Below the pieces are notes generated by a model. The model saw only the letters and a program-made list of their open reading frames with translations. It had not been told where the DNA came from and did no database searches. Position numbers and translations under genes: made by a program. A DNA stretch of 64,000 nt from Candidatus Woesearchaeota archaeon. GTDB lineage: Archaea > Nanobdellota > Nanobdellia > UBA10117 > GCA-020343615. The DNA lies in the NCBI GenBank assembly GCA_020343615.1, contig CP070803.1, positions 143,686-207,685 of the forward strand. Reading direction: 5' to 3'. How positions within the stretch are numbered: position 1 is the first letter of the stretch; every line of letters starts with the position of its first letter. Positions 8,265 to 61,485 of the stretch are shown piece after piece.

Positions 8265-8266
8265 GT

Positions 8267-8285
8267 GTGGTGTATCCTCCACCAC
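8267..8285 (+). terminator. Stem-loop (GTGGTG-N7-CACCAC) immediately after the 7122..8264 stop; possible terminator
   Basis: A perfect 6-bp inverted repeat seen directly in the sequence. No long T tract follows, so this is a weak call. Confidence 0.25.
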
Positions 8286-8319
8286 AAGCTTTATATGCCT
8301 TTTCTTTTACTCCCTTTTT

Positions 8320-9039: not shown

Positions 9040-9141
9040 TCACTGAATTGTAGTTATTCTTAGTATTTAATGGATTTGTATACTGGTTTTTATAAATCCT
9101 TATATAGTGTGGTAAAGAAGTTTACCCCAAGGTGATATAAA

Positions 9142-10053
9142 ATGAGTTGGAATGATGATTTAGAGAAAGCTACAGAAGAATTCAAGAGTATTGTTTGTAT
9201 GGGTATTGACCCTGATCAAGAAAAAATAGAAAAATCGATGGGTTTAGAAAAAGGAAAATTAAACCCTAAAATTCACTTAGTTGAATTTTATGAAGATATC
9301 CTTGATGAGATGGAAAAAGAGGCAACTATGCCTGCTGCTGCTAAAACAAATTATGCTTTTTTTGCAAGATTTGGTCGTGATGGACTCCATGCTTTAGGAG
9401 AATTAAGTGATATTATTAACGGTAAGAAAATACCGTGGATCCTAGATGGAAAAAGAGGGGATATAAAAAATACAGGTATAGCATATGCAGAAGAAATGTT
9501 TAAAGTCTGGGGTGCGGGTGCTATCACTGTGAATCCTTATATGGGCACAGATAACGTTGAACCTTTTACTAAATGGGTTAATGAAGAGGATAAAGAAGAT
9601 AAAGGTGGTAGAGGTGTATATGTTCTTGTCAGAACTTCTAATCCTGGAGCTAAAGATTTCCAAGACCTTGTATTAAAAGATGGTAGAAAAGTTTATGAAG
9701 TAGTTCTAGAAAAAACGCTTGAATGGGGTAATAGCGTTCCTAATGATGTTGGTGGTGTTGTTGGAGCTACATCTGTACCTGAGCTTTACGATATAATGCA
9801 AAAGGTAGGTGAATACAATCCGAATATTCCTATATTAATACCTGGAGTTGGTAAGCAAGGTGGAACTGGTTATGAAGTAGCTAATGGAATAGTCAAATAT
9901 AAGTTAAACGCAAAGAAGCAAAGAGTTAACTCATCTAGAGCACTTAACTACGCTAAATTAGAGGATCCTGAGGCTAAAACATCTGGAGAAGCTTCTGTTA
10001 AAAATCTTAAAAAACTTAATACTGATATTGCAAAAGGTGGAGTGAAATTATAA
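9142..10053 (+). CDS. pyrF: Orotidine 5'-phosphate decarboxylase (type 2)
   Basis: GIDPD...ILDGKRGDIKNT (the DxKxxDIxNT catalytic motif)...IPGVGKQGG. Confidence 0.8.
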   Translation: MSWNDDLEKATEEFKSIVCMGIDPDQEKIEKSMGLEKGKLNPKIHLVEFYEDILDEMEKEATMPAAAKTNYAFFARFGRDGLHALGELSDIINGKKIPWILDGKRGDIKNTGIAYAEEMFKVWGAGAITVNPYMGTDNVEPFTKWVNEEDKEDKGGRGVYVLVRTSNPGAKDFQDLVLKDGRKVYEVVLEKTLEWGNSVPNDVGGVVGATSVPELYDIMQKVGEYNPNIPILIPGVGKQGGTGYEVANGIVKYKLNAKKQRVNSSRALNYAKLEDPEAKTSGEASVKNLKKLNTDIAKGGVKL

Positions 10054-10061
10054 TATAAAAG

Positions 10062-11003
10062 GTGAATAAAATGAAAAAAGAATTTAATCCAAATAATTTC
10101 TATCAACGTAGAAGCTTAGCTTCTGTTTTAGGACAGATGAATAAACGTTTATGGGAATTGCAACCTGACCTTCAAGGTAAACATGTTTTTGTTCCTGGAA
10201 ATCTTGAAGATGAAATGGCTTTGTTGTATGCTACTATAGATGTAGACAAAGAAAAGTATGGAGAATCAATATATCAAGTTCAAGAAACATATAGAGACAA
10301 AATAAACTCTATTTTAGATATTACAAACCCGTTCAGGAAAGTTGCTTCCGAAGCAGTAGCTTTAGTATTATGGAATACACCTGAAGCTTTTAGAGTTAAT
10401 ACTAAAGATGGGATAGAGCTTAACAGTGGAAATTTATCTGCAATTTACTTTAATGGTAGAAAAATACCTGCTTACCCTGATTTTATGAATCTTATAAGTT
10501 CTTTTTTACAAATAGAATACATAAGAACCACTGGTGGTGCAGATGTTATTGTTGGTGGTGAAAGTGCAGGGATACCTTATGGTACGTGGTTTGCAAAGGA
10601 TACTTTTATGCCGAATGGTTACGTGAGGAAAAAACCTAAGGGTTATGGTACTACAGATCAAATAGAAGGAACAGTAGGTCCTGGTGATGACGTAAAGTTA
10701 ATAGAAGATTTGATAACTGACGGTGGAAGTAAGCTGACTTTTATAAAGGGTATAAGAAATGAAGGTGGCACTATAGAAGATGTTTTTGTAGTTATTGACA
10801 GGCAACAGGGAGGCAAAGAAACATTAGAAAAAGTCGATGTTAATTTGCACTCTCTTACAACAATGGAAGATATTCTAAATGTAGGATTAGAGTATGAATA
10901 TATTAATGATGGAGAATTAAAAAGTATTAAAGAATATTTAAATGATCCTAAAGCTTGGCATGAAGCACGAACAGAGCGACCATGGAATCCTCCTAAAAAA
11001 TAA
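10062..11003 (+). CDS. pyrE: Orotate phosphoribosyltransferase with roughly 110-aa N-terminal and C-terminal extensions
   Basis: Type I PRTase motifs: ELNSGNLSAIYFNGRK (OPRT hood-like), VIVGGESAGIPYG, and the PRPP loop DVKLIEDLITDGGS. Confidence 0.7.
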   Translation: MNKMKKEFNPNNFYQRRSLASVLGQMNKRLWELQPDLQGKHVFVPGNLEDEMALLYATIDVDKEKYGESIYQVQETYRDKINSILDITNPFRKVASEAVALVLWNTPEAFRVNTKDGIELNSGNLSAIYFNGRKIPAYPDFMNLISSFLQIEYIRTTGGADVIVGGESAGIPYGTWFAKDTFMPNGYVRKKPKGYGTTDQIEGTVGPGDDVKLIEDLITDGGSKLTFIKGIRNEGGTIEDVFVVIDRQQGGKETLEKVDVNLHSLTTMEDILNVGLEYEYINDGELKSIKEYLNDPKAWHEARTERPWNPPKK

Positions 11004-11017
11004 ACTAAACCCTAAGG

Positions 11018-11806
11018 GTGAATAAAATGCTATTCACAAATAAAGAAAAGGTTTGTAAGGCAATATATGACTGTAATCCTGTAAACATGAATGGGGTTGA
11101 AAAGCCTGCTTTTGAATACGGTAAATTTATTTTTACTTCGGGTAAGATTCAAATCTTTAAAATTAATCATAGAGTCATAACGTCGGACCCTAAAAAAAGA
11201 AGGGATATAGTTGACGAACTAACATATGTTGCTAGAGATTGGAACGCAGATCATATAGTTTCTTCTGAATCTGCCGGTATTCCGTGGGGTACTCTTGTTG
11301 CATATGAACTGGGTGTTGGTTCTTCAGTAATAAGACAAAATGGAGAGTTAATGGGAGTTATACCTAAAGACGTAGAGCGAATATGTGGTGTTGATGATTT
11401 GAATACAACTTATAGAACACTCCTCTGTGTGGTAAAGGGTGTGAAATCTCTGGGAGCAGATATAAAGAATTATACTGTGATTGTTGATAGAGAAGAATAT
11501 ACACCTGAAAATGAAGCTGAGTTTAAAAAATTAGGAATTAAATTAATTCCTTTAGTTACGGGCGCAGAACTTATTGACTATGGACTTGAAAAAGGACTGG
11601 TAAGAAAAGATAAAATTGAACTAATTGAACAATATAAAAAGGATTCTGATGCAGTCGTTCTTAAAATTATTAAGGAAAATCCGGAATGGGTTCTTAATCA
11701 TAAAAGATTAGATAGAACATATGAATTTTATAAAAATAATGATAAGATTAAAAAGGCCTTAGAAGAACTTATAGAGTCAGATAACTCAAAAGAAAAAACT
11801 CATTAA
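11018..11806 (+). CDS. Second, divergent OPRT-like phosphoribosyltransferase paralog with a C-terminal extension
   Basis: GKFIFTSGKIQIFKINHRVI (OPRT-like N-terminal motif), VSSESAGIPWGT, and a degenerate PRPP loop VDDLNTTYRT that lacks the GG. Confidence 0.55.
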   Translation: MNKMLFTNKEKVCKAIYDCNPVNMNGVEKPAFEYGKFIFTSGKIQIFKINHRVITSDPKKRRDIVDELTYVARDWNADHIVSSESAGIPWGTLVAYELGVGSSVIRQNGELMGVIPKDVERICGVDDLNTTYRTLLCVVKGVKSLGADIKNYTVIVDREEYTPENEAEFKKLGIKLIPLVTGAELIDYGLEKGLVRKDKIELIEQYKKDSDAVVLKIIKENPEWVLNHKRLDRTYEFYKNNDKIKKALEELIESDNSKEKTH

Positions 11807-11883
11807 AATAAAGAACTTTATTTAATATATATATTTTTCTTCTTTTTTATACAAATTTTTTTAAAGTTAAGATAGAGATTACA

Positions 11884-11917
11884 GAGAGGTTTTCTGACCT
11901 CCCTGGAGGACAAGATG
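11884..11917 (+). promoter_or_regulatory. GC-rich 5'-leader element GAGGTTTTCTGACCTCCCTGGAGGACAAGATG; an anti-SD/SD hairpin (CCTCC..GGAGG) that overlaps the RBS and start codon
   Basis: Seen directly in the sequence. A near-identical motif recurs at 14238..14267. Confidence 0.45.
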
Positions 11918-12907
11918 AAAGAAGGATATAAACTCCCGAAAGATTTCTTTGAGAAGGAAAAAGCAGCTTTGGTTAAGATAGAATCTGGACTTATAGACGG
12001 TGCAGTAAATTACCTAAGAAAAAATGCCTTTACACAAGTTATACCGCCGCATCTAACTAGAGCAACTGGAGCTTGTGAAAATATAGACACGATGTTTGAG
12101 GTGGATTACTTTGGTAATAAATCATTCCTGTCTCAAACAGGACAACTATATTTAGAGTCTTTTATCTCGGAATTAGGAAATGTCTATTGTATTGGTCCTA
12201 GTTTTAGGAAAGAACCATCTGCAGATGCCAGACATCTTACAGAGTTTACATTGATAGAACTAGAGTTTCCTACAAAAAACGGATTGGAAGAACTTATGAC
12301 ACATGTTGAAGGAATAGTATCTTCGATGATAAACAATGTGGTAGAGAATAATCATGAAGATCTACAAACAGTAAATGCGAATATAGAAAGATTAGAAAAC
12401 CTAACAGTTCCTTTTGAGAAGATAACGTACAACAAAGCATTGAATATCTTAAATAATAATGGATCTAGCATGAAGTGGGGGAGTGACTTAAAGAACAAAC
12501 ATGAATTGTTTATAACAGAACACTCTGGTAAAAAACCAGTATTCATAACACATTATCCGCAAGAGATGAAATTCTTCAACATGGAGCCTAATGAAGAAAA
12601 TCCTAAGATAGTAAACAGTACCGACCTTATACTGCCAGATGCTGGAGAAGCAGTAGGCGCTGCTTGCAGAATATACAAACCAGACCAACTAATCAACAGG
12701 CTAGATGCTTCAAGTATGATGGGACAATTAAGAAAAAAAGGAGTGGAAATGGACGCCTTTAGCTGGTACGAAGACGTTGTGGCTAAACATGGTATGCCTC
12801 ATGCTGGCTTCGGAATGGGGCTTGGAAGAGTGATGAAGTATGTAACGGGAGCAGAGGACATTAGAGACTGCACTGCATTCCCAATAAATGCAGCAGTGAT
12901 ATATTAA
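11915..12907 (+). CDS. Asparagine synthetase A-like / AsnRS-paralog: a class II aaRS catalytic core with no anticodon-binding domain
   Basis: Class IIb motifs are present: motif 2 FRKEPSADARHLTEFTLIELE and motif 3 GFGMGLGRVMKYVTG. There is no N-terminal OB-fold, and the length (330 aa) corresponds to the catalytic core alone. Confidence 0.7.
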   Translation: MKEGYKLPKDFFEKEKAALVKIESGLIDGAVNYLRKNAFTQVIPPHLTRATGACENIDTMFEVDYFGNKSFLSQTGQLYLESFISELGNVYCIGPSFRKEPSADARHLTEFTLIELEFPTKNGLEELMTHVEGIVSSMINNVVENNHEDLQTVNANIERLENLTVPFEKITYNKALNILNNNGSSMKWGSDLKNKHELFITEHSGKKPVFITHYPQEMKFFNMEPNEENPKIVNSTDLILPDAGEAVGAACRIYKPDQLINRLDASSMMGQLRKKGVEMDAFSWYEDVVAKHGMPHAGFGMGLGRVMKYVTGAEDIRDCTAFPINAAVIY

Positions 12908-13219
12908 ATGAAGAAACAGTGGAAAAGTGAAAAGGGTACAATCCCTAAATCTAAGTTATTGGAAATAATTAATAGCTCTCTTCCAGGATCGTCCTCTTCG
13001 GAAGAGATAATTTCTAATTTTGAAGAAACAATAATCGACCTCGTAGCCAAAGGCTACAGAGTCAGAACCGGTTTAGGATCATTTTATCCTGTTCATTGGG
13101 AAACTAGGGAAGTCGAACTATCTGGAGAAAAAAGAACAGTTATTGGAAGAAATATAGTTATGTATAATGCTAGCAAAAATTTTAAAGACAGAGTTAAATC
13201 ATTAACTTATGAGAAGTAA
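12908..13219 (+). CDS. HU/IHF-family (bacterial-type) DNA-binding protein homolog
   Basis: The C-terminal half, GLGSFYPVHWETREVELSGEKRTVIGRNIVMYNASKNFKDRVK, follows the HU arm pattern (GFGxF...R..R.GRNP.TGE...I.A...V.F..GK.LKD). Confidence 0.55.
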   Translation: MKKQWKSEKGTIPKSKLLEIINSSLPGSSSSEEIISNFEETIIDLVAKGYRVRTGLGSFYPVHWETREVELSGEKRTVIGRNIVMYNASKNFKDRVKSLTYEK

Positions 13220-14162
13220 TATGGATCTAAGTACAAAGCTAGCTGGAATAACATTAAGGAATCCTACTATGAATGCATCAGGCGTACTCATAATTTTTCC
13301 TCCGATGATGAAAGCATTTGAAGATCACGGTATAGGCGCAGTAGTTGGTAAGTCTGTAACGAAAGAGCCTAGAGAAGGGAATAACGGACCTACTGTAATT
13401 CAACGCAGTGAAGATGTTTGTATGAATCGCATGGGCTTACCTAATCCAGGTGTAGAAGAATATATTGAAGAAATAAAAAAATATGAGTTTAATATACCTG
13501 TAATTATTAGCGTTGCTGGCTTTTCGTTAGAAGAATATGTGTCTAATGCTATAAAAGGTGTAGAAGTTGGAAAAATAATTGAAGTGAATCTATCTTGTCC
13601 TAATGTAGAGGGAGGGACTATCTGCTTTGCTATTGATCAAACATATAAAATATGTAGAGAAATCGTAGACAATGTGGATGTTCCTGTTTTTAGTAAGCTT
13701 TCTCCCTATACTAACCTTCTCGGATTAAATAAGACGATAGATGCTGTATATAAAAGTGGGGTAGACGGAATAACTTTAACTAACACTGCTCCTTCTTTAA
13801 GTATAATCTCTTTAGATATAGCTGTAAATGAGAGGCGTAATAATAACCTCTTTAAGGGAGGGTTATCTTCAAAGGCTCTTTTTCCAATTAGCCTAAGAAA
13901 CGTTTACGAAGCTAGTAAATACATTGAAAAAGAAGGTCTAGAATTAGATCTCATCGGGGTTGGAGGTATAGAAACACATGAAGAAATGATAAGTTATATT
14001 CTCTGTGGGGCTAAGGCAACTCAGTTTGGTTCTGCAGCAGCCTTACATTTTAATGAGAATTATAAAGAAATTCCTAGATCTCTATGCAATGGTTTGGAAG
14101 ATTTCATGAGAGATAATAATTACAAATCACTTGAAGATTTTAGAGGAGAGGTATATAGATAA
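13209..14162 (+). CDS. pyrD: Dihydroorotate dehydrogenase (class 1)
   Basis: NASGV...GAVVGKS...NLSCPNVEGG...TNT...GVGGI motif series. The true start may be the Met at 13221, which would avoid overlapping the upstream stop. Confidence 0.85.
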   Translation: MRSNMDLSTKLAGITLRNPTMNASGVLIIFPPMMKAFEDHGIGAVVGKSVTKEPREGNNGPTVIQRSEDVCMNRMGLPNPGVEEYIEEIKKYEFNIPVIISVAGFSLEEYVSNAIKGVEVGKIIEVNLSCPNVEGGTICFAIDQTYKICREIVDNVDVPVFSKLSPYTNLLGLNKTIDAVYKSGVDGITLTNTAPSLSIISLDIAVNERRNNNLFKGGLSSKALFPISLRNVYEASKYIEKEGLELDLIGVGGIETHEEMISYILCGAKATQFGSAAALHFNENYKEIPRSLCNGLEDFMRDNNYKSLEDFRGEVYR

Positions 14163-14237
14163 ATCGATAGAGTAAGGCTCTAAATATATTATTCTCTCTT
14201 ATATAAATCCTTTTAAAGCAAAATTATGTAATTTAAA

Positions 14238-14267
14238 GAGGGTTTCTCGCCTCCGCGGAGGATAATG
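14238..14267 (+). promoter_or_regulatory. Second copy of the GC-rich 5'-leader element GAGGGTTTCTCGCCTCCGCGGAGGATAATG
   Basis: Seen directly. Shares the GAGG(G)TTTCT..CCTCC-NN-GGAGGA..ATG architecture with 11884..11917. Confidence 0.45.
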
Positions 14268-14522
14268 ACATCGAATAGTACAAATGATGTAGAACCATCA
14301 AGGATTATAACTAATTTAGAAGGAAAGTTGGGGAAAGGGATAAGAGATGAAATATTAAGAATGTTAAAAGGTGGAAAAAAAGTGCATATAAATAAATTAG
14401 GATATTTCTATAGCCAAAATTGGTCGGGTAAAAAAATCATTGGCTTTTCACCGTATCCCTGCGCTTTAAGTAATTTAAACAACGGAAAAAACGTTTATAT
14501 AAATAACCAGAAAAGGTATTAG
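14265..14522 (+). CDS. Small hypothetical protein (85 aa), possibly a divergent HU-like fold
   Basis: Preceded by the conserved leader motif. The C-terminal GYFYSQNWSGKKIIGFSP segment loosely resembles an HU arm. Low confidence. Confidence 0.35.
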   Translation: MTSNSTNDVEPSRIITNLEGKLGKGIRDEILRMLKGGKKVHINKLGYFYSQNWSGKKIIGFSPYPCALSNLNNGKNVYINNQKRY

Positions 14523-20899: not shown

Positions 20900-21160
20900 T
20901 CACTTTAACTGTATTACTTGAAAACCGTATTTATATATATCTTCTTTTTTCCAGAATTCACAATCTTTAGTTTTTAGAACAAAGGATACTTCTTTCTTTA
21001 ATTCTCTGCCAGTATATTCTTTTGTTTTAGGGTCCCATTCTTTGAGTAGTAGAATATCGCCCTCCTTACAATCAAAATCTGCTAACCTAACATCAAAATT
21101 CTTTTTACCTTCTTTTACAAGTTCAAATAATTCAGGCCAAGCTTTCTTTTTTATTATCAT
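20900..21160 (-). CDS. Small PUA/ASCH-like beta-barrel protein (hypothetical)
   Basis: 86 aa with a pattern (WPELFELVKEGKK.FDVRL....KEGDILLLKEWD) reminiscent of ASCH/PUA-like domains. Low confidence. Confidence 0.35.
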   Translation of the reverse strand: MIIKKKAWPELFELVKEGKKNFDVRLADFDCKEGDILLLKEWDPKTKEYTGRELKKEVSFVLKTKDCEFWKKEDIYKYGFQVIQLK

Positions 21161-21710
21161 CTAATTTGTACTCCCAACCGGGTTCCCACTCTTTAGGTTG
21201 TTTTAAGCGCCAGTCTTCTCTGATTGCTTGTTCCCAGGTTTTCCCTTTAAGTATCACATCTAGTGCTAATTGTGGAGTTCTATGAGCTACTATTGCAGTA
21301 TTTTTTTTAGGATATTTTTCCAATAAGTCGCTTAGAAAGCTACGTACTCTTTTTTCTACATCCTTATAGCTTTCTCCATTAGGGAAAGGTTCTTCGATTT
21401 TATTAAAATCTATAGAATAAATTTCTTTTGAACTGCGTCTTTCTAGATCTCCGTAATTACACTCTCTTAATCTTTTATCTTGAATAATCGGAATTCCTCT
21501 TTTTTTGAAGGTTAATTCAGCTGAGTCTATTGCTCTCTTTAGATCTGAACAGAAAACAACATCAAATTGTTTATATTTAATTAATCCTTCTAATTTAATC
21601 GATTGTTTTTTCCCTAAATTTGATAATTCGGCAGGAGACCATCCTGTAGCTAGATTCTTTTTATTATCTTTAGTGGTTCCGTGCACAAAGTAAGTGATAT
21701 TAACTACCAT
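21132..21710 (-). CDS. Histidine phosphatase superfamily (phosphoglycerate mutase-like) protein
   Basis: A VHGTT motif (RHG-type phospho-His motif) near the N-terminus, and a conserved His later (AIVAHRT). The start was trimmed to the Met at 21710 because the longer ORF runs through the tRNA-Glu gene. Confidence 0.6.
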   Translation of the reverse strand: MVVNITYFVHGTTKDNKKNLATGWSPAELSNLGKKQSIKLEGLIKYKQFDVVFCSDLKRAIDSAELTFKKRGIPIIQDKRLRECNYGDLERRSSKEIYSIDFNKIEEPFPNGESYKDVEKRVRSFLSDLLEKYPKKNTAIVAHRTPQLALDVILKGKTWEQAIREDWRLKQPKEWEPGWEYKLDDNKKESLA

Positions 21711-21721
21711 ATTAACATAAA

Positions 21722-21828
21722 TGCCCCCGACGGGATTCGAACCCGTGTCCATGGCTCGAAAGGCCATAATGACTTGCCCTCCTTTCAATTTCTCGAAAAA
21801 GAGTTTGGCCGGACTACACCACAGGGGC
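21722..21828 (-). tRNA. tRNA-Glu(TTC) with an intron of about 33 nt at a non-canonical position in the D-loop/D-stem
   Basis: Hand-folded as acceptor GCCCCTG/CGGGGGC, anticodon arm ATGGC-CTTTCGA-GCCAT, variable loop GGAC and T-arm ACGGG-TTCGAAT-CCCGT. The 5' part TGGTGTAGTCCGGCCAA...CATT matches an archaeal tRNA-Glu D-arm only after removing an internal insert. Confidence 0.6.
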
Positions 21829-21880
21829 ATTAAAGTTACTATTATTTATCGGGTTTTTAAATGTTTTGAAAAGCAAAAAG

Positions 21881-53245: not shown

Positions 53246-56200
53246 CTAATCGCTTAAAGGAAGATAATCCGTGTTAGCAGAACAGTTGGAAATGATTCGG
53301 GTGTGCATTAAATCTGTGTTATTGTACCATGAAATTGACACATCTGAATCTGAAGTTGAATCTACTAGTCTTCCTTTCTTTACTGCTAAGTTTCTTCCAT
53401 TAGGATATCCTAACCAAGTAGAACCTGCATTTGCTAATTTTACACATGACCAACTACCTGCAGAATTATAACAGTATCTTAAATCATCATTTGTAGCATC
53501 ATAATGAGATATATATACAACATCATTGGAGTCTATTGCTATGCTTGTATCCCATCCAACGTCACCAGTGGTTTCTACATTCTCGCAGGTCCAAGAACCT
53601 CCAGAGTTGTTGCAGTATGATAGTGAACCATTATTCGAAGATACGTGGACAACATCATTGGAGTCTATTGCTATGCTAGTATGTTTACCACCATCTCCTA
53701 TTTGCTTGCAAGTCCAGGTTCCTCCAGAGTTGTTGCAGTATCTTAAATCATCATTACCAGCATCAGTATGAGAGATATGAACTACATTATTGGAATCTAT
53801 TGCTATGCTTGAACAGTCTCCGACCATACCTCCTAGGTCTACATTCTCGCAGGTCCAAGAACCTCCAGAGTTGTTGCAGTATCCTAACGAATAAACTACA
53901 GTAGCATTTTTGTGAGATATATGGACAACATCATTGGAGTCTATTGCTATGCTTGAAAATTCTCCGACAACACCATTAGTTGCTACATTATCGCAAGTCC
54001 AGGTTCCTCCAGAGTTGTTGCAGTATCCTAGATTACCTCCGGTTTCATTATAATATGATATATGAACAACATTAGTAGAGTCTATGGCTATGCTTGAATC
54101 GTATCCGACATTACCAGTAGTTTTTAAGTTCTTACATTCCCAATTTCCGTATGTTCCGTTACAGTACCCTAAATCATCATTTGTATCATTAAAGTAAGAT
54201 ATATGAATCATTCCGTTATAGTCTATTGCTATGCTTGAATACCTTCCTGTATCATTTTTTGACTCTACTGTTTCTGTACTACTTCCTAGCTGACACGCTC
54301 TGTCATTATACACATCATAAGCCTCATCACAGAAGCCATCATTATCATCATCGGTACAGTCATAATAATATCCGTCTCCAGAACCATTAATCCAAACATT
54401 ACCTCCTATATTGGTTCCAGAACCATAAATCCTATTTCCTGTTTTGTTTGTTGTATTAAAGTAATTAGGAGGGTTTGGGGGAGTTCCAGTAAAGCGTACA
54501 TTATCATAAGTTCCAGAATTATTTAGTAGACAATTGTATATTTGATTGTATTCAGGATAATCCGAACCACTTGGATCGAAATAGATTCCAGCCAAAGAAT
54601 TGCCTTTTATTGTTGAATTAGCTATAATATTATTGTCCGAATTGGAAGATAACCTAACTCCATAACTATTTGAATTGGTAATACTCTCTGAAATAATATT
54701 AGAATTTGAGTTATATAAAAAAATTCCATGTTGTGAATTTGAATTTGCAGTTACGTTTATGAAGTTATTGGAGTCTGAAGAATACATTTGAATTCCATAA
54801 CTATTTGAATTTGCGGTTATATTTGTGAAGTTATTGGAGTCTGAAGAAGACATATAAATCCCTACATATGATGAATATGAAGTTATATTAATAAATGTAT
54901 TGGAATTAGAATACATTAACATTATGTACTCATTATTTGAGTTATTTATATTTTCAAAATGTGCTCCATCTGTTTGAGCTATAATAATACCATTATTATC
55001 TATACTATCAGAACCTCTTATTGTTATATTATTTAAGTAAGAGTTACTTGCATTACATAAAATTATATGACTTATATTACCCTCCCAGTTTTGGATATTC
55101 ACAGTATCTTTATAGTACTTAATTGGTCTGTTCCCTGAACCTGTTATGTTTTCTATATGATTTTCACAATGATTATCTGTAGTAGTAGAAACGTATAAAT
55201 CCAGTTCGTTTTCTAAGAGTTTTGAATTAGTAATAGAACTACTATATGAATTTCGCAGATAAAATCCATATTGATTTGAATTTGCAGTTATATTTGTGAT
55301 ATTGTTGTAATCTGACATTATATAGACTCCATGTTGTGAATTTGAATTTGCAGTTACGTTTATGAAGTTACTGGAATCTGAATAAATAAAATAAATTCCT
55401 CGCCAATTTGAATTTGTGATTGTATCTTTAATAGTATTTTTGTCAGATGCACTAGTACTATAAATTCCATTAAAAAAGTCTGTGATTTTACAATTTAATA
55501 CAGTATTATTATCAGAACCTCCATTTGAATTATTTAACCAAATTCCATAATCTGTTGTTCCTGAATCATCTCCAGTAATATTATGCCCTTGACAGTCAAA
55601 TGTTACATCATCTGTTCCGTTAAAGTCTATACATCTTCCAGTTGTGGAGATATTATCAACCAAATAAATAGTATCTCCTGAACTTGCTTGACCAATCTCT
55701 GCGGTGCAGTTATCACAACTATAACAAAGAGCTCCTGCTAATTCAATAGTACAGGTAGCAGAGCAGCCATCTCCCCCTGTAGTACCTCCATCGTCACATT
55801 CTTCTCCACATTCTACTACATCATTTCCACAGAATTGGTCTAAACTGCAATCTCCATTACATCCTGGGTAAGGATCACAATCTACATTATTACCATCATC
55901 ACATTGCTCATCCCCTTCAGGATTATTATCACCACATATAGTAAGAAATACTACTTCAGTATCATATTCTCCTGTAGCTGATGTTGCTGATGAAAAATGA
56001 ATAGTATAGAAATATGTGGTTGACGCCTTTATATTACAAATAAAAGGATTTATTCGTATATATAAGGATACTGTTCCTCTAGCACTTAAATATTTTTCAG
56101 AGATATTCGCTTCAAAGGCTCCACCTGGTGAGAGATATTCGCTTTGACAAACTACTTCTCCACTTGGTTTATATATCTCTAACAACATATTTGACTCATT

Positions 56201-56440
56201 TAGTTTCATTCTTCTACTTCCTTTGTTTTTTATGTCTACTCTTAAGACATTATTTTTATACGACTCTGATAGAATTACAGGATTATATGATGTTAATGTT
56301 GTTGTTATGTCTCTTATTGCTTCCACTTCTCTTTCAGATGGTTGTATAGTCTTAACATAAAACAGAATTGATATAGATATTAATACTGTGAATATTGCTA
56401 GGATGATAATAGAGAGTATAGGGGTTAATCCTTTTTTCAT
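53246..56440 (-). CDS. Giant (1064 aa) membrane-anchored surface protein: Cys-rich module, right-handed parallel beta-helix repeats, and seven C-terminal propeller-like repeats of about 42 aa
   Basis: N-terminal anchor (LTPILSIIILAIFTVLISISILF); a Cys-rich DDGNNVDCDPYPGCNGDC..CGEECDDGG module; PbH1-like repeats (NITANSNSQHGVYI / NITANSNQYGFYL / NITANSNSYGIQM...); then 7x [SSIAIDSNDVVHISHxDAxNDDLRYCNNSGG(S/T)W(T/S)C] repeats. Confidence 0.7.
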   Translation of the reverse strand: MKKGLTPILSIIILAIFTVLISISILFYVKTIQPSEREVEAIRDITTTLTSYNPVILSESYKNNVLRVDIKNKGSRRMKLNESNMLLEIYKPSGEVVCQSEYLSPGGAFEANISEKYLSARGTVSLYIRINPFICNIKASTTYFYTIHFSSATSATGEYDTEVVFLTICGDNNPEGDEQCDDGNNVDCDPYPGCNGDCSLDQFCGNDVVECGEECDDGGTTGGDGCSATCTIELAGALCYSCDNCTAEIGQASSGDTIYLVDNISTTGRCIDFNGTDDVTFDCQGHNITGDDSGTTDYGIWLNNSNGGSDNNTVLNCKITDFFNGIYSTSASDKNTIKDTITNSNWRGIYFIYSDSSNFINVTANSNSQHGVYIMSDYNNITNITANSNQYGFYLRNSYSSSITNSKLLENELDLYVSTTTDNHCENHIENITGSGNRPIKYYKDTVNIQNWEGNISHIILCNASNSYLNNITIRGSDSIDNNGIIIAQTDGAHFENINNSNNEYIMLMYSNSNTFINITSYSSYVGIYMSSSDSNNFTNITANSNSYGIQMYSSDSNNFINVTANSNSQHGIFLYNSNSNIISESITNSNSYGVRLSSNSDNNIIANSTIKGNSLAGIYFDPSGSDYPEYNQIYNCLLNNSGTYDNVRFTGTPPNPPNYFNTTNKTGNRIYGSGTNIGGNVWINGSGDGYYYDCTDDDNDGFCDEAYDVYNDRACQLGSSTETVESKNDTGRYSSIAIDYNGMIHISYFNDTNDDLGYCNGTYGNWECKNLKTTGNVGYDSSIAIDSTNVVHISYYNETGGNLGYCNNSGGTWTCDNVATNGVVGEFSSIAIDSNDVVHISHKNATVVYSLGYCNNSGGSWTCENVDLGGMVGDCSSIAIDSNNVVHISHTDAGNDDLRYCNNSGGTWTCKQIGDGGKHTSIAIDSNDVVHVSSNNGSLSYCNNSGGSWTCENVETTGDVGWDTSIAIDSNDVVYISHYDATNDDLRYCYNSAGSWSCVKLANAGSTWLGYPNGRNLAVKKGRLVDSTSDSDVSISWYNNTDLMHTRIISNCSANTDYLPLSD

Positions 56441-57258: not shown

Positions 57259-60200
57259 TTGATGTATCGTAGAGCTAACTTCAGTGTATTTATACTTGTA
57301 TCTATATTTATCTTTATACTTTTACTTCCATCTTTTTTTATACTCTTAAAATTTGATGGTTTTACATTATATCAAAGATTTCAAGAATATGAACCATGGA
57401 TTAGTATTACGGGTGTTACTGTTGCTGAAGATGTTATGATTATTAAAAAAAATTTTGAAGAGCCATTCTTATTTCCTATAACTTTAGAAAATCAGGAATT
57501 TATGGTGGTAGAACTGACAAACTGTATCTCTGTTGGTGAAGTCGGTGAACCAAGCCTTCCAGTATGTCCTGTTCATATTTTAATTTCGCAAAGTAAGGTA
57601 ATATCTAATGTTGATGTGGATTATTTTGATGAAACTAGGATAGATTATGACTTATCTAATAAACCAATAGTTCCTGCCCAAAAAGAAATTCCTATTAGTT
57701 GTGAAGATGTGCCTGACTTCGCCTTGAATCAGGAAATTTATAATTCGGATCAACCCGTCCCAGAACTAATTTATGAAAACAAGGGTACTGGGCTTATGGT
57801 TGGTTTTAACATCTTGACGATAAATTTGAATCCAGTTAGATACATACCTAAAAATGGAGAATTATATTATTATCCTAAAATGGAGATAAGTGTTACTTTA
57901 GCAGACGGGTTTGGTGCTGTTAGTGAACAAGAGAACAAATTTTTAAGATTAAAAGAAAGTGATGTTGATCGTGTTAGTTCTTTGATAGAAAACCCTTCCA
58001 CTATTTCTTCTTATTCTGTGCCTGTTGAATTTGGAACATTGGATGCTCCTCTGAATGGAAGTTGTACTTGTGATCCTACTAAAACATATGAATATGTGAT
58101 AATAACTGATGAGTCTCTATTAAATTCTAGTGGCTACAATTACAGTTGGTATGATTTAATAAATCACCGGAGAAACTATAGTGGTTTAAATGGAACAATA
58201 GTAACTGTACAACAAATTGAGAATTGTTCTGATTATCAAAACAATACTTATCCTTTCAATGATTCTGCTCATAGTATACGTGAATTCATTAAAGATGCTT
58301 ATCAAAATTGGGGTACTGAATACGTTGTATTAGGTGGGAAGTGGAGAGATGACACCCCTGCTGAAAAAATGGTTCAATATCGTTTATTCACAGATATTTA
58401 TGAAACGGGTACTTATGATACTATGCCTTGTGACTTGTACTACAGCAATCTTGACGGTGATTGGTGGTATTCTAATTATAGTGTATGGGGTGGCGGTAAG
58501 AACAGTCCAGTTAATGATAAGTTCTCAGAGATTTATGTAGGTCGTATAACTGCTTACGATACTGAACATGTTTCAAATGCTGTACGTAAAATAATTTGGT
58601 ATGATATTAACAATCATAGTGAGGAATGGTTAGTAACTGTTACATTTGCTGGTGCTAATCTAGGTTGGGCTGTCACTTCAAAACAATACATGGAAGAATT
58701 ACGTATAGGTAACGGATCGTATTCTGAAAATATTGGTTTTGAAGAATGGAACTCTAAACATTCATATTATCCATTTTATACGTTAGAAAATAGATATTAT
58801 CATGCTGATGATACGTGGAGTGATTTCTTAGAGTCTATAGAAAATGATACTAGTTCTATTGTAAATCATATCGGACATTCGAGTTGGAATACTCCTTTTA
58901 GTCTTACTAATTGGCAATTTAGAAATAATACTTTGCCCTTTTTTGGTTACTCACAAGGTTGTCTGGCGGGTAGATTTTCTAGTGGTTTCTCTGGTTGTGA
59001 ACAAACGATGTGCAGACATCCTGAAAAACACGCCTTTGCTGTAGTTCTGAACACAGGATACGGTTATGGTAGTTTTAGTTCTACTCACGGCGCGAGTCAG
59101 CAACTGCATAAGATATTTTGGGCTTATTTTTTTAATGAAGCAGAAAATAATTTAAGTGAGTGGGAATTAGGAAGAGCTCAGTCCTATTCTAAAGATGAAT
59201 TCTCTGCATATATTGATTCTAATCATGCAAAATGTTATGTGTGGTATAGTTCACATTTATTTGGCGATCCTGCACAAAAGCTAGAAATTGCTAGTGTAAT
59301 AAAATCGAATGGTGAATCTTGTTCTTACGAATATGAATGCCTGTCTGGATACTGTGAAGATAGAGTTTGTTGTTCATCTTCATGCGGTGTTTGTCAAGCA
59401 TGTAATATAAATGGTAGTAAAGGTAATTGTTCTAATTACACACAAGGTTCTGACCCAGATAATGAGTGCTCTACAGCTGAGTGTGGTATCGGATACTGTA
59501 ACGGTTTTGGTACTTGTGAAGTATATAGTGATGGTCTAAGACATAATTGTAGTAGTTGTTATTATTGTACCGACTTGGATGAGAGTTGTGATTTAGTACC
59601 TGATGGACAAGATCCTAACAATAACTGCGCTGGAGGAAATGGCACCTCAAATGGTTGTGCGGGAGATTACTGCGACGGTTCTGGCTCCTGTCAAATTATT
59701 AGTTCTGGGGAAGGTAACTGCCCTATTTGTACATTATGTCTAGATAATGATACTGAATGTGAATATTACTCTAATAACACCCAAGATAATGTGGGTAATT
59801 TAACTTGTTTTGGTATTTGTAAGAAATGTGATGGTCTAGGTCAGTGTATCAACCAAACCGCTGGAGAGGATATATTTGACCAATGTGATGCTAATCTAGA
59901 ATGCCATATTGGTATCTGTAATGGTCTTGGAGAATGTGATGTCTATTCTAATGGTGAAAAAGGCTCTTGTGGACCTTGTAAGTATTGTAATGATAGTGAC
60001 TCTAATTGTGAATATGTTCCTTCTGGGCAAGACTTATTTAGTGAGTGTGTTGGTTTGCAGTGTGATGGAGACGCTATAACTCCATATTATTGGGGTTGGG
60101 ACTCATTAACATGTTACTATAGTTCAAATATCTTTTCTAGAGATCACTATTGTGACGGTTCTGGCTCTTGTTATGCTGCTGAAGATTTATGTCCTTCACA

Positions 60201-61485
60201 AGGAAAGGATGGCTCTACGAATATTACTTGTAATTGTGCTGAAGCACTAACTGGTTGTAATGGAACTGTTGTTGGAAGCTGTCTAAATTGTGCTCCTCTG
60301 AATAATTCCGCCCCAACAGCCCCTATCCTTTTGTATCCTGCAGATGAAACTAATAATACTAATAATTCTGTAGATTTTGATTGGGATGATTCTATAGATA
60401 TAGATGGGGATAATATCTCCTATTATTTAGCAATAAATTCGTCGGTAAACTCTACTCAAATTACTTATAGTGTTATGGAATCAAGTTATTCTTCATATTC
60501 TACTATTGATAACGTAACATATTATTGGAGAGTAAAAGCTAGTGATGGTTTAGATAACAGTTCTTGGTCATCTACTTATAAATTTATAGAAATAATTGAA
60601 GTAGAAGAAGAACCTGAAGAGGAAGAAGATCAGACTCCTAGCGGAGGCAGCGGCTCTTCAGGAGGAGGTGGAGGTGGTAGTCCCTCTCCTATTCTCAGTA
60701 GTGCTTCAACAATAACCCCGCCCTCTATTAATTACGACTTATCTGAAACAAATGAAGAAGAGATTAAAGAAGTTGTTAAGTCTAAGCTTAGTGAAATAAG
60801 CAGCAACACTAAAGAAGTTTACAAAGATGTTTCAGTTGATGTGTCTGTTAATCATCCTAGCTCTGAAAGTACCTCTCTTGATTTTAGTTTTAAGTATGGT
60901 AAAGGTACGCCTCTAAAAAAAGTGATGATATTCATTGAAGTTCCTAAATCCTTTGCTGAATCTGCAGAAGATATAACTTTTGAGTCTAGTGTCCCTTATA
61001 GTAAAATGGAAGTTGTTGAAAATGATCCTGTTTATTATTTCTACTATGAAAATCTGGAATCTGAGAATATATCTTATTCTTTCCATAATAATGAATATAG
61101 TATAGGAAGCAAGGTCATTGAAGATGTAAGTCAACCATGGGTTTTCTTTGAAACTGAAGAAGAAGTTGTTCCAGAATGTGGTAATAATGTAATAGAAAAA
61201 GGGGAAGAATGTGATAGTGTTAGTGGACTAATTGAAGGTTATAGATGCTCTGCTGAATGCAAACTAGTTCCTATCCTTCAATGCATTGATGATGGGGATT
61301 GTACTCAAGAAGAAACAGAATTAGGTGAGTGTAATGACTGTTTAATTAGTACTCCTGCACCTACTAGTGCTTATGTTATATTATATCAAAAGTGGTTTGT
61401 TGTATTACTTATTATCTTTATAATATGTACTCTCATATTAGGACTTAAACTAGAAATTAAGAATAAGAAAAAAAGGAAGAAATAG
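57259..61485 (+). CDS. Giant (1408 aa) surface protein: N-terminal anchor, putative clan-CD (gingipain/C25-like) cysteine peptidase domain, Cys-rich EGF-like repeats, FN3 domain, Gly/Ser linker, and a C-terminal TM anchor with a basic tail
   Basis: N-terminal TM (FSVFILVSIFIFILLLPSFFILL). Candidate His/Cys dyad: VNHIGHSSW ... FFGYSQGCLAG, about 27 aa apart. Repeated CxxC..C..NC..GxGxCE modules. FN3-like APTAPILLYPAD...YYWRVKASDG. SGGSGSSGGGGGGSPSP linker. C-terminal WFVVLLIIFIICTLILGL-KLEIKNKKKRKK. Confidence 0.7.
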   Translation: MMYRRANFSVFILVSIFIFILLLPSFFILLKFDGFTLYQRFQEYEPWISITGVTVAEDVMIIKKNFEEPFLFPITLENQEFMVVELTNCISVGEVGEPSLPVCPVHILISQSKVISNVDVDYFDETRIDYDLSNKPIVPAQKEIPISCEDVPDFALNQEIYNSDQPVPELIYENKGTGLMVGFNILTINLNPVRYIPKNGELYYYPKMEISVTLADGFGAVSEQENKFLRLKESDVDRVSSLIENPSTISSYSVPVEFGTLDAPLNGSCTCDPTKTYEYVIITDESLLNSSGYNYSWYDLINHRRNYSGLNGTIVTVQQIENCSDYQNNTYPFNDSAHSIREFIKDAYQNWGTEYVVLGGKWRDDTPAEKMVQYRLFTDIYETGTYDTMPCDLYYSNLDGDWWYSNYSVWGGGKNSPVNDKFSEIYVGRITAYDTEHVSNAVRKIIWYDINNHSEEWLVTVTFAGANLGWAVTSKQYMEELRIGNGSYSENIGFEEWNSKHSYYPFYTLENRYYHADDTWSDFLESIENDTSSIVNHIGHSSWNTPFSLTNWQFRNNTLPFFGYSQGCLAGRFSSGFSGCEQTMCRHPEKHAFAVVLNTGYGYGSFSSTHGASQQLHKIFWAYFFNEAENNLSEWELGRAQSYSKDEFSAYIDSNHAKCYVWYSSHLFGDPAQKLEIASVIKSNGESCSYEYECLSGYCEDRVCCSSSCGVCQACNINGSKGNCSNYTQGSDPDNECSTAECGIGYCNGFGTCEVYSDGLRHNCSSCYYCTDLDESCDLVPDGQDPNNNCAGGNGTSNGCAGDYCDGSGSCQIISSGEGNCPICTLCLDNDTECEYYSNNTQDNVGNLTCFGICKKCDGLGQCINQTAGEDIFDQCDANLECHIGICNGLGECDVYSNGEKGSCGPCKYCNDSDSNCEYVPSGQDLFSECVGLQCDGDAITPYYWGWDSLTCYYSSNIFSRDHYCDGSGSCYAAEDLCPSQGKDGSTNITCNCAEALTGCNGTVVGSCLNCAPLNNSAPTAPILLYPADETNNTNNSVDFDWDDSIDIDGDNISYYLAINSSVNSTQITYSVMESSYSSYSTIDNVTYYWRVKASDGLDNSSWSSTYKFIEIIEVEEEPEEEEDQTPSGGSGSSGGGGGGSPSPILSSASTITPPSINYDLSETNEEEIKEVVKSKLSEISSNTKEVYKDVSVDVSVNHPSSESTSLDFSFKYGKGTPLKKVMIFIEVPKSFAESAEDITFESSVPYSKMEVVENDPVYYFYYENLESENISYSFHNNEYSIGSKVIEDVSQPWVFFETEEEVVPECGNNVIEKGEECDSVSGLIEGYRCSAECKLVPILQCIDDGDCTQEETELGECNDCLISTPAPTSAYVILYQKWFVVLLIIFIICTLILGLKLEIKNKKKRKK

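Follow-up and report, generated by a model that had tools for sequence, protein, structure and literature searches.

A recurrent leader motif in a woesearchaeal pyrimidine cluster

The DNA analysed here, referred to throughout as the window, is a 64-kb stretch (64,000 nucleotides; contig CP070803.1, positions 143,686 to 207,685) of a 919-kb contig from a Candidatus Woesearchaeota metagenome-assembled genome, a DPANN archaeon. The window has a G+C content of about 33% and encodes archaeal hallmarks including an intron-containing tRNA, RadB and CDC48. Its pyrimidine cluster runs in the order pyrF, a pyrE-like gene, a second phosphoribosyltransferase (PRT)-like gene, a paralogue of the AsnRS catalytic core, an HU-like gene, pyrD and an open reading frame (ORF) of 85 amino acids (aa). 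A short motif lies immediately ahead of two of these genes, the AsnRS-core paralogue (copy 1) and the 85-aa ORF (copy 2), and in each copy the Shine-Dalgarno (SD) sequence can pair with a complementary tract just upstream, hereafter the anti-SD (Table 1). Comparison with related genomes identified this pairing as a conserved, covarying hairpin.

The original prediction had quoted two nearly identical motifs ahead of neighbouring genes, and both strings are present exactly, GAGGTTTTCTGACCTCCCTGGAGGACAAGATG at 11886-11917 and GAGGGTTTCTCGCCTCCGCGGAGGATAATG at 14238-14267. A gapless comparison of 11886-11910 with 14238-14262 confirmed the likeness, with 20 of 25 positions identical and approximately zero such matches expected by chance. 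The associated TATA-like boxes agree at 14 of 17 positions, against 8 of 19 for the intervening 19-nucleotide (nt) spacer in the same type of alignment. Because similarity is limited to the motif and the promoter, a recent duplication of the two copies is ruled against. The pattern CCTCC-N2-4-GGAGG occurred twice in the 64 kb (0.06 expected), and the longer pattern GAGG-N5-10-CCTCC-N1-6-GGAGG also occurred twice (0.00 expected). Other details of the predicted architecture required adjustment. The arrangement CCTCC-NN(N)-GGAGG is present in both copies, with a gap that is 2 nt in each and never 3; this spacing precludes a fifth base pair (bp) and therefore limits the stem to 4 bp closed by a tetraloop. 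The start codon had been placed 6 to 8 nt beyond GGAGG, and actually follows its end by 5 nt in copy 1 and by 3 nt in copy 2.

The SD hairpin is conserved and covaries among related leaders

Proteins at least 62% identical to the AsnRS-core paralogue numbered eight, including the window's own, and the DNA was readable for six of the seven relatives. All six readable orthologues (62-66% identity) have the leader, flanked by a TATA-like box on one side and the start codon on the other, and it was absent from three distant orthologues at 54-56% identity (L013, L015 and L086). Leader-bearing genes adjoin pyr genes, namely pyrF and pyrD (L001), a pyrF-pyrE fusion (L005), pyrB and pyrD (L008) or a PRT gene (L011), and the paralogue genes that do not have the leader are not located next to pyr genes. 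A metagenome scan with the AsnRS-paralogue protein returned a single locus (L010), truncated at its 5' end.

We compared eight leaders, comprising the two window copies and the orthologous leaders of L001, L005, L008, L011, L084 and L085. In seven of the eight, the SD lies within the 3' arm of a local hairpin just 5' of the start codon. This hairpin consists of 4-7 bp and ends 3-5 nt before the start codon, with a C/U-rich anti-SD situated 1-5 nt upstream of the SD. Its loops span 3-5 nt (the gap between the complementary arms being 1-5 nt), its arms 4-7 nt, and some pairs are U·G or G·U. Across lineages the arms pair as CCUC/GAGG, GCCUCU/GGAGGC (with a U·G pair), GCCUCC/GGAGGC, CUCUC/GAGAG and UUCUCCC/GGGAGAA.

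Leader alignments generated by MAFFT (A1 and A2) were structurally incoherent, and N-padded hand alignments (A3 and A4) replaced them. In the structural alignment of all eight leaders, 91.8% of cells in the SD helix are paired, and two helix positions have changed on both sides (CG/GC/UA and CG/UA/GU), with U·G and G·U pairs found in L001 and L011. The covariation score was 0.311, compared to 0.116 in shuffles, none of which reached it (0/500), and to at most 0.138 with slid partners. RNAalifold predicted the identical helix. The covariation check that had been suggested across related genomes accordingly identified two covarying pairs, and the central claim, that an upstream anti-SD sequesters the SD in a hairpin, is upheld by folding in seven of eight leaders and by compensatory changes across six related contigs. 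The element is real and conserved, and in the leaders of pyr-cluster transcription units the SD forms part of its covarying hairpin.

Folded in isolation, the hairpins of seven of the eight leaders have energies between -4.3 and -10.6 kcal/mol, a range similar to that of the SD:anti-SD duplex (-6.4 to -10 kcal/mol), and the probability that the SD is paired was 0.7-1.0 for the predicted 5' ends (see below). Among 60 gene starts in the window, a local SD hairpin was found at only three, the two motif copies and pyrF, all of them in the pyr cluster. The pyrF hairpin shares the layout of the motif copies and has an unrelated sequence; it too is preceded by a purine-rich stretch, GGUAAA, complementary to its anti-SD. 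A hairpin of this type was not evident in the pyrF leader of L001.

Searches by sequence pattern added no further members. Over 130 kb comprising the window and related loci, a covariance model based on the two window copies turned up no other convincing copy; one match, at 60179-60211, was rejected as it falls within a long ORF with E = 0.25. A strict-pattern scan of 185,579 species genomes, among which the source genome is not included, gave 68 matches where about 50 would be expected by chance (hand estimate); these were scattered over unrelated bacteria, with none in Woesearchaeota. A scan of viral contigs gave 97 matches, none with a TATA box and start codon in context. T-arm mimicry, a K-turn, T-box-like pairing to a tRNA 3' end and an upstream ORF were each dropped on inspection, as was an intrinsic terminator, there being no U-run after the hairpin.

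The motif corresponds to the entire predicted 5' leader

Most genes in the window have a TATA-like box 25-32 nt ahead of the start codon and look leaderless, and a smaller number carry an SD in a leader of about 22-28 nt. We took the start codons of the leaderless genes as marks of transcription start with which to calibrate the distance from the TATA-like box; these codons peak at +27 to +29 from the TATA anchor. All eight leaders contain the block RRGG-U2-4-CU (R, purine), and in all eight the GG/UU boundary lies 26-28 nt past the anchor (27 nt in copy 1). Because the position of this boundary matches the start peak of the leaderless genes, transcripts probably begin at the GG or at the U-run. 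The calibrated start is 8-10 nt upstream of the hairpin and gives a leader of about 27 nt, such that the motif is the entire predicted 5' leader. With the predicted start at or just after GAGG, this tetranucleotide may be only partly within the RNA. The RRGG/UU(UU)CU block could mark the start region or, alternatively, serve as a single-stranded site of contact at the 5' end. The gene downstream of copy 2 has two TATA-like boxes, with anchor-to-ATG distances of 50 and 30 nt.

Table 1. Positions of the leader elements and the associated genes in the window (a slash marks the purine-to-pyrimidine boundary).
Feature	Position	Strand	Details
pyrF leader hairpin	9111..9135	+	GGUAAA 9111-9116; anti-SD UUACC 9122-9126; loop CCAA; SD GGUGA 9131-9135; ATG 9142; -3.5 kcal/mol
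pyrF	9142..10053	+	ATG 9142
TATA-like box TTTTTAAA, copy 1	11858..11865	+	Anchor A 11863; same box at equal distance in copy 2 and all six orthologous leaders
Conserved 5' block GAGG/TTTTCT, copy 1	11886..11895	+	RRGG-U2-4-CU in 8/8 leaders
Anti-SD/SD hairpin, copy 1	11898..11909	+	CCUC 11898-11901; loop CCUG 11902-11905; GAGG 11906-11909; -4.3 kcal/mol
SD GGAGG, copy 1	11905..11909	+	
AsnRS catalytic-core paralogue ("AsnA-like", 330 aa, JSW73_00930)	11915..12907	+	First gene of copy 1 operon
HU/IHF-like small protein (103 aa)	12908..13219	+	Second gene of copy 1 operon; PF00216, 26.2 bits vs cut-off 22.4
Dihydroorotate dehydrogenase (pyrD)	13209..14162	+	Third gene of copy 1 operon
TATA-like box CTTTTAAA, copy 2	14210..14217	+	Anchor A 14215
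Proximal second TATA-like box TTTAAAG, copy 2	14232..14238	+	Anchor A 14235, 30 nt before ATG
Conserved 5' block GAGGG/TTTCT, copy 2	14238..14247	+	
Anti-SD/SD hairpin, copy 2	14250..14261	+	CCUC 14250-14253; loop CGCG 14254-14257; GAGG 14258-14261; -5.5 kcal/mol
SD GGAGG, copy 2	14257..14261	+	
85-aa ORF (JSW73_00945), orphan headed by copy 2	14265..14522	+	Weak HU-like signals only

A candidate translational brake on pyrimidine genes

We propose, with a probability of about 0.6, that the motif is the 5' leader of pyr-cluster mRNAs and that its SD-occluding hairpin acts as a translational brake. Once transcribed, the hairpin would occlude the SD and lower binding of the 30S subunit. Such a brake would act on the operon of the AsnRS paralogue and pyrD and on the 85-aa gene, with the pyrF operon bearing an analogous hairpin. 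The 5' block (GG)UU(UU)CU, which is dispensable for the hairpin, might represent the transcription-start region or a contact for a trans-acting factor. That factor could conceivably respond to pyrimidine supply by stabilizing or opening the hairpin, by analogy to the logic of PyrR translational repression in mycobacteria; alternatively, an event at transcription initiation might couple the hairpin to pyrimidine supply.

Several observations weigh against a translational brake. Both copies in the window have a stem of just 4 bp, the stem of L011 has decayed (-0.8 kcal/mol), and the covariation comes from eight sequences in an alignment that was fitted by hand to the helix. The anti-SD/SD complementarity is also a palindrome in the DNA, which leaves some room for selection at the DNA level. 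The proximal TATA-like box of copy 2 may give rise to a leaderless mRNA that bypasses the hairpin, in which case the 85-aa gene would have two promoters. The matches of the two adjacent PRT-like ORFs are to pyrE, apt and hpt models, with none to PyrR, and the evidence for the hairpin comes from sequence and in silico folding.

Alternative explanations

The original prediction also held that the upstream GAGG could pair with CCTCC and thereby release the SD, as in an RNA thermometer or a protein- or metabolite-controlled switch. In a three-part riboregulator of this kind, CCUCC would have two alternative partners, the SD in the off state and the upstream GAGG in the on state, with the balance between them set by temperature or a ligand; we consider this unlikely. 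Most leaders do contain a purine block complementary to the anti-SD, and the pyrF leader has an equal three-part layout, but any purine block pairs with any pyrimidine block: the GAGG:CCUC helix paired in 77.5% of cells, no better than shuffles (80.4%), and none of its pairs had changed on both sides. Including the full GAGG in copy 1 flipped its fold, such that the probability of SD pairing fell from about 0.7 to 0.09. The GAGG pairing nevertheless outranked the SD hairpin in a single leader of the eight; the SD hairpin prevailed whatever the 5' end in six of eight, with L008 yielding partly when further upstream bases were included, and the predicted start lies at or after the GAGG itself. 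A thermometer is unlikely because the stems, which are GC-rich and mismatch-free, are predicted in most leaders to remain closed up to 65 °C or beyond. In six of eight, the probability of SD pairing was nearly constant from 4 to 55 °C and dropped only at 65 °C or above; the L011 stem alone opened gradually, from 0.86 at 4 °C to 0.42 at 55 °C. The genes under the leader (the AsnRS paralogue, pyrD and an orphan ORF) are moreover metabolic, not heat-shock or virulence genes. A metabolite-controlled switch is likewise unlikely, as known aptamers would not fit in the roughly 27 nt of this leader. Rfam searches of the whole window at gathering thresholds, and of both leaders at E <= 10, yielded tRNAs and chance-level matches only; no PyrR or thermometer family, and no known aptamer from any Rfam riboswitch family, matched the window or the leaders.

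Regulation might instead operate at transcription initiation, with UTP/CTP relative to purine levels picking the start site or slippage at RRGG/UU(UU)CU and the resulting 5' end determining if the anti-SD becomes captured, with the SD freed or hidden accordingly. The genes are pyrimidine-biosynthesis operons, the GG/UU boundary sits 26-28 nt past the TATA anchor in eight of eight leaders and leaderless genes of the window begin at +27 to +29, and in the pyrC/pyrD precedent the choice of start site is linked to an SD hairpin (PMC6524683). A 1-nt shift of the 5' end flips SD accessibility in copy 1, which would fit this scheme, as would the effect of 2-7 extra 5' G residues in silico, which lowered SD pairing in most of the eight leaders and brought it below 0.1 in four. 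Yet dependence of SD accessibility on the start nucleotide was seen in silico only in copy 1 (and weakly in L008), the hairpin, set 8-10 nt in from the 5' end of the RNA, is independent of exactly where that end falls, and a literature search found no paper on reiterative transcription in archaea. Slippage usually requires a run of at least three G residues, which is present in only three of eight leaders. We therefore regard nucleotide-sensitive initiation as improbable; it would amount to the first case in archaea, here a DPANN lineage, of pyrimidine sensing by the initiating RNA polymerase, with a 5' end chosen via UTP/CTP governing the anti-SD in convergence with pyrC/pyrD or pyrG, a prospect we hold to be remote. 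It is also doubtful that the CCTCC-NN-GGAGG palindrome, the GAGGTTCT block or both constitute a DNA operator, at which a factor such as the neighbouring TrmB-family regulator would block RNA polymerase at the start. The element does overlap the predicted start, where archaeal repressors usually sit, the sequence of GAGGTTCT and its phase relative to the TATA box are both conserved, and the window and L001 each have TrmB-family genes close to the cluster; such genes are not in the flanks of L005, L008 or L011. The variable loop of 3-5 nt argues against a dimeric DNA operator of fixed spacing and fits an RNA hairpin, the arms vary in length from 4 to 7 nt and their gap from 1 to 5 nt, U·G or G·U pairs break the symmetry of the DNA, and the GAGG...CCTC spacing itself varies from 6 to 8 nt. 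The leader element thus has neither the fixed spacing nor the symmetric half-sites of a palindromic operator. A better candidate exists elsewhere in the cluster, upstream of the TrmB and pyrF promoters: the palindrome TGTGGTG-N7-11-CACCACA occurs once in the window, at 8266-8286 (0.00 expected), and in L001 upstream of 7833 and 8695, placing it immediately ahead of the TATA box in TrmB-family regulator genes and, in L001, in pyrF as well. This palindrome is probably the operator of the cluster's TrmB-type regulator. Finally, a strong SD and a conserved promoter and start might simply happen to neighbour complementary pyrimidines, with no dedicated function. The short 4-bp stems of the window agree with such a coincidence, as do whole-leader folding energies no better than those of shuffles (z = +0.5 to +0.8), but it becomes very improbable in light of the compensatory changes across lineages, the identity of 20/25 in the motif versus 8/19 in the adjacent spacer, and the confinement of SD hairpins to the pyr cluster among 60 gene starts.

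Comparison with known systems

The translational brake proposed above would belong among the SD-occluding leaders, a class already known; its host and gene context are unusual. Its closest known logic is that of the pyrC/pyrD leaders of E. coli and Salmonella, which combine start-site switching with an SD-sequestering 5' hairpin (PMC6524683). Shared features are a short leader on a pyrimidine-biosynthesis gene (including pyrD), a hairpin that occludes the ribosome binding site and a conserved sequence at the transcription start. The pyrC/pyrD hairpin, however, includes the 5'-terminal nucleotides, whereas the hairpin described here is internal and independent of the 5' end in most leaders; the promoter here is archaeal, and dependence of the SD on the start nucleotide is seen in copy 1 only.

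In Mycobacterium, PyrR represses pyr genes at the level of translation; the site to which PyrR binds constitutes Rfam family RF00515. As in that system, we found a stem-loop over the ribosome binding site in a pyr operon leader, with PRT-fold proteins encoded next to it. Unlike the PyrR site, the leaders have no RF00515 match at E <= 10, and the adjacent PRT-like proteins have no PyrR signature. A stretch of copy 1, CAGAGAGGUU, resembles a PyrR box, but none of the other seven leaders contains it and its position precedes the predicted start. The fourU and ROSE thermometers likewise pair the SD in a small leader hairpin, and UUUUCU could pair with GGAGGA through G·U pairs, but the stems here are GC-rich and perfect, the ROSE motif U(U/C)GCU is missing and the genes are metabolic. 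In Bacillus subtilis pyrG, CTP-sensitive reiterative transcription acts on a terminator. The leaders described here resemble pyrG in starting with G residues followed by pyrimidines, and in having a downstream C/U tract that extra 5' G residues could capture; they differ in that the target would be the SD rather than a terminator, and in that a run of at least three G residues occurs in only three of eight.

To our knowledge, few cis-regulatory RNA elements are known in archaea, and our literature search found no cis-regulatory leader described for DPANN archaea. DPANN lineages are uncultured and have mostly leaderless mRNAs. At about 30 nt, the element is an easily synthesized candidate with which to test SD-dependent initiation and its control in these organisms, and it could show whether pyrimidine control "without repressors" arose independently in archaea. 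The analysis also flags an unusual pyr cluster as deserving metabolic annotation.

Genes of the pyrimidine cluster and other observations

The AsnRS-core paralogue consistently opens pyrimidine operons in this clade (window 11915-12907; L008:6001-9511; L085:803-2058; L011:3001-4538); in L008 the operon comprises the paralogue, a 136-aa gene, pyrB and pyrD. The protein has no anticodon-binding domain and scores under every NCBIfam equivalog cut-off. A dihydroorotase gene (pyrC) was seen in none of the fetched loci. AsnA-type chemistry forms an amide at the beta-carboxyl of aspartate via an adenylate, which is formally what ring closure of carbamoyl-aspartate needs. By this analogy, and purely as a hypothesis, the AsnRS-core paralogue might replace PyrC.

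The 85-aa ORF had no homologue beyond itself among 5.8 billion proteins, and a search of 1.84 billion cluster representatives added only a spurious match to a short repeat. Its HU-like signals are faint (HU-HIG, 16.8 bits; E = 0.003 against the neighbouring 103-aa HU-like protein), and its AlphaFold model is poor (pLDDT 56) and unsuited to a fold search. On these sequence matches, both motif-led units may encode HU-fold proteins.

The tandem PRT-like genes share an identical string, GGTGAATAAAATG, at 10059-10073 and 11015-11029, and pyrF has the near-identical AAGGTGATATAAAATG at 9129-9144. The GTG starts given for both PRT-like genes in the ORF list fall within the SD, and their true starts are probably the ATGs at 10071 and 11027.

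Outside the cluster, we noted a 107-nt Rfam tRNA match at 21722-21828 on the minus strand (50.5 bits) that ARAGORN did not find. It is consistent with an intron-containing archaeal tRNA, and the overlapping ORF call at 21132-21830 is probably spurious. A stretch of about 40 nt (...tgcaacaactctgGAGGTTCTtggacctgcgagaatgtaga...) is repeated on the minus strand at 53601 and 53865, within a 1064-aa ORF (53246-56440). It looks like an internal protein repeat that has its GAGGTTCT octamer in common with the leaders by chance.

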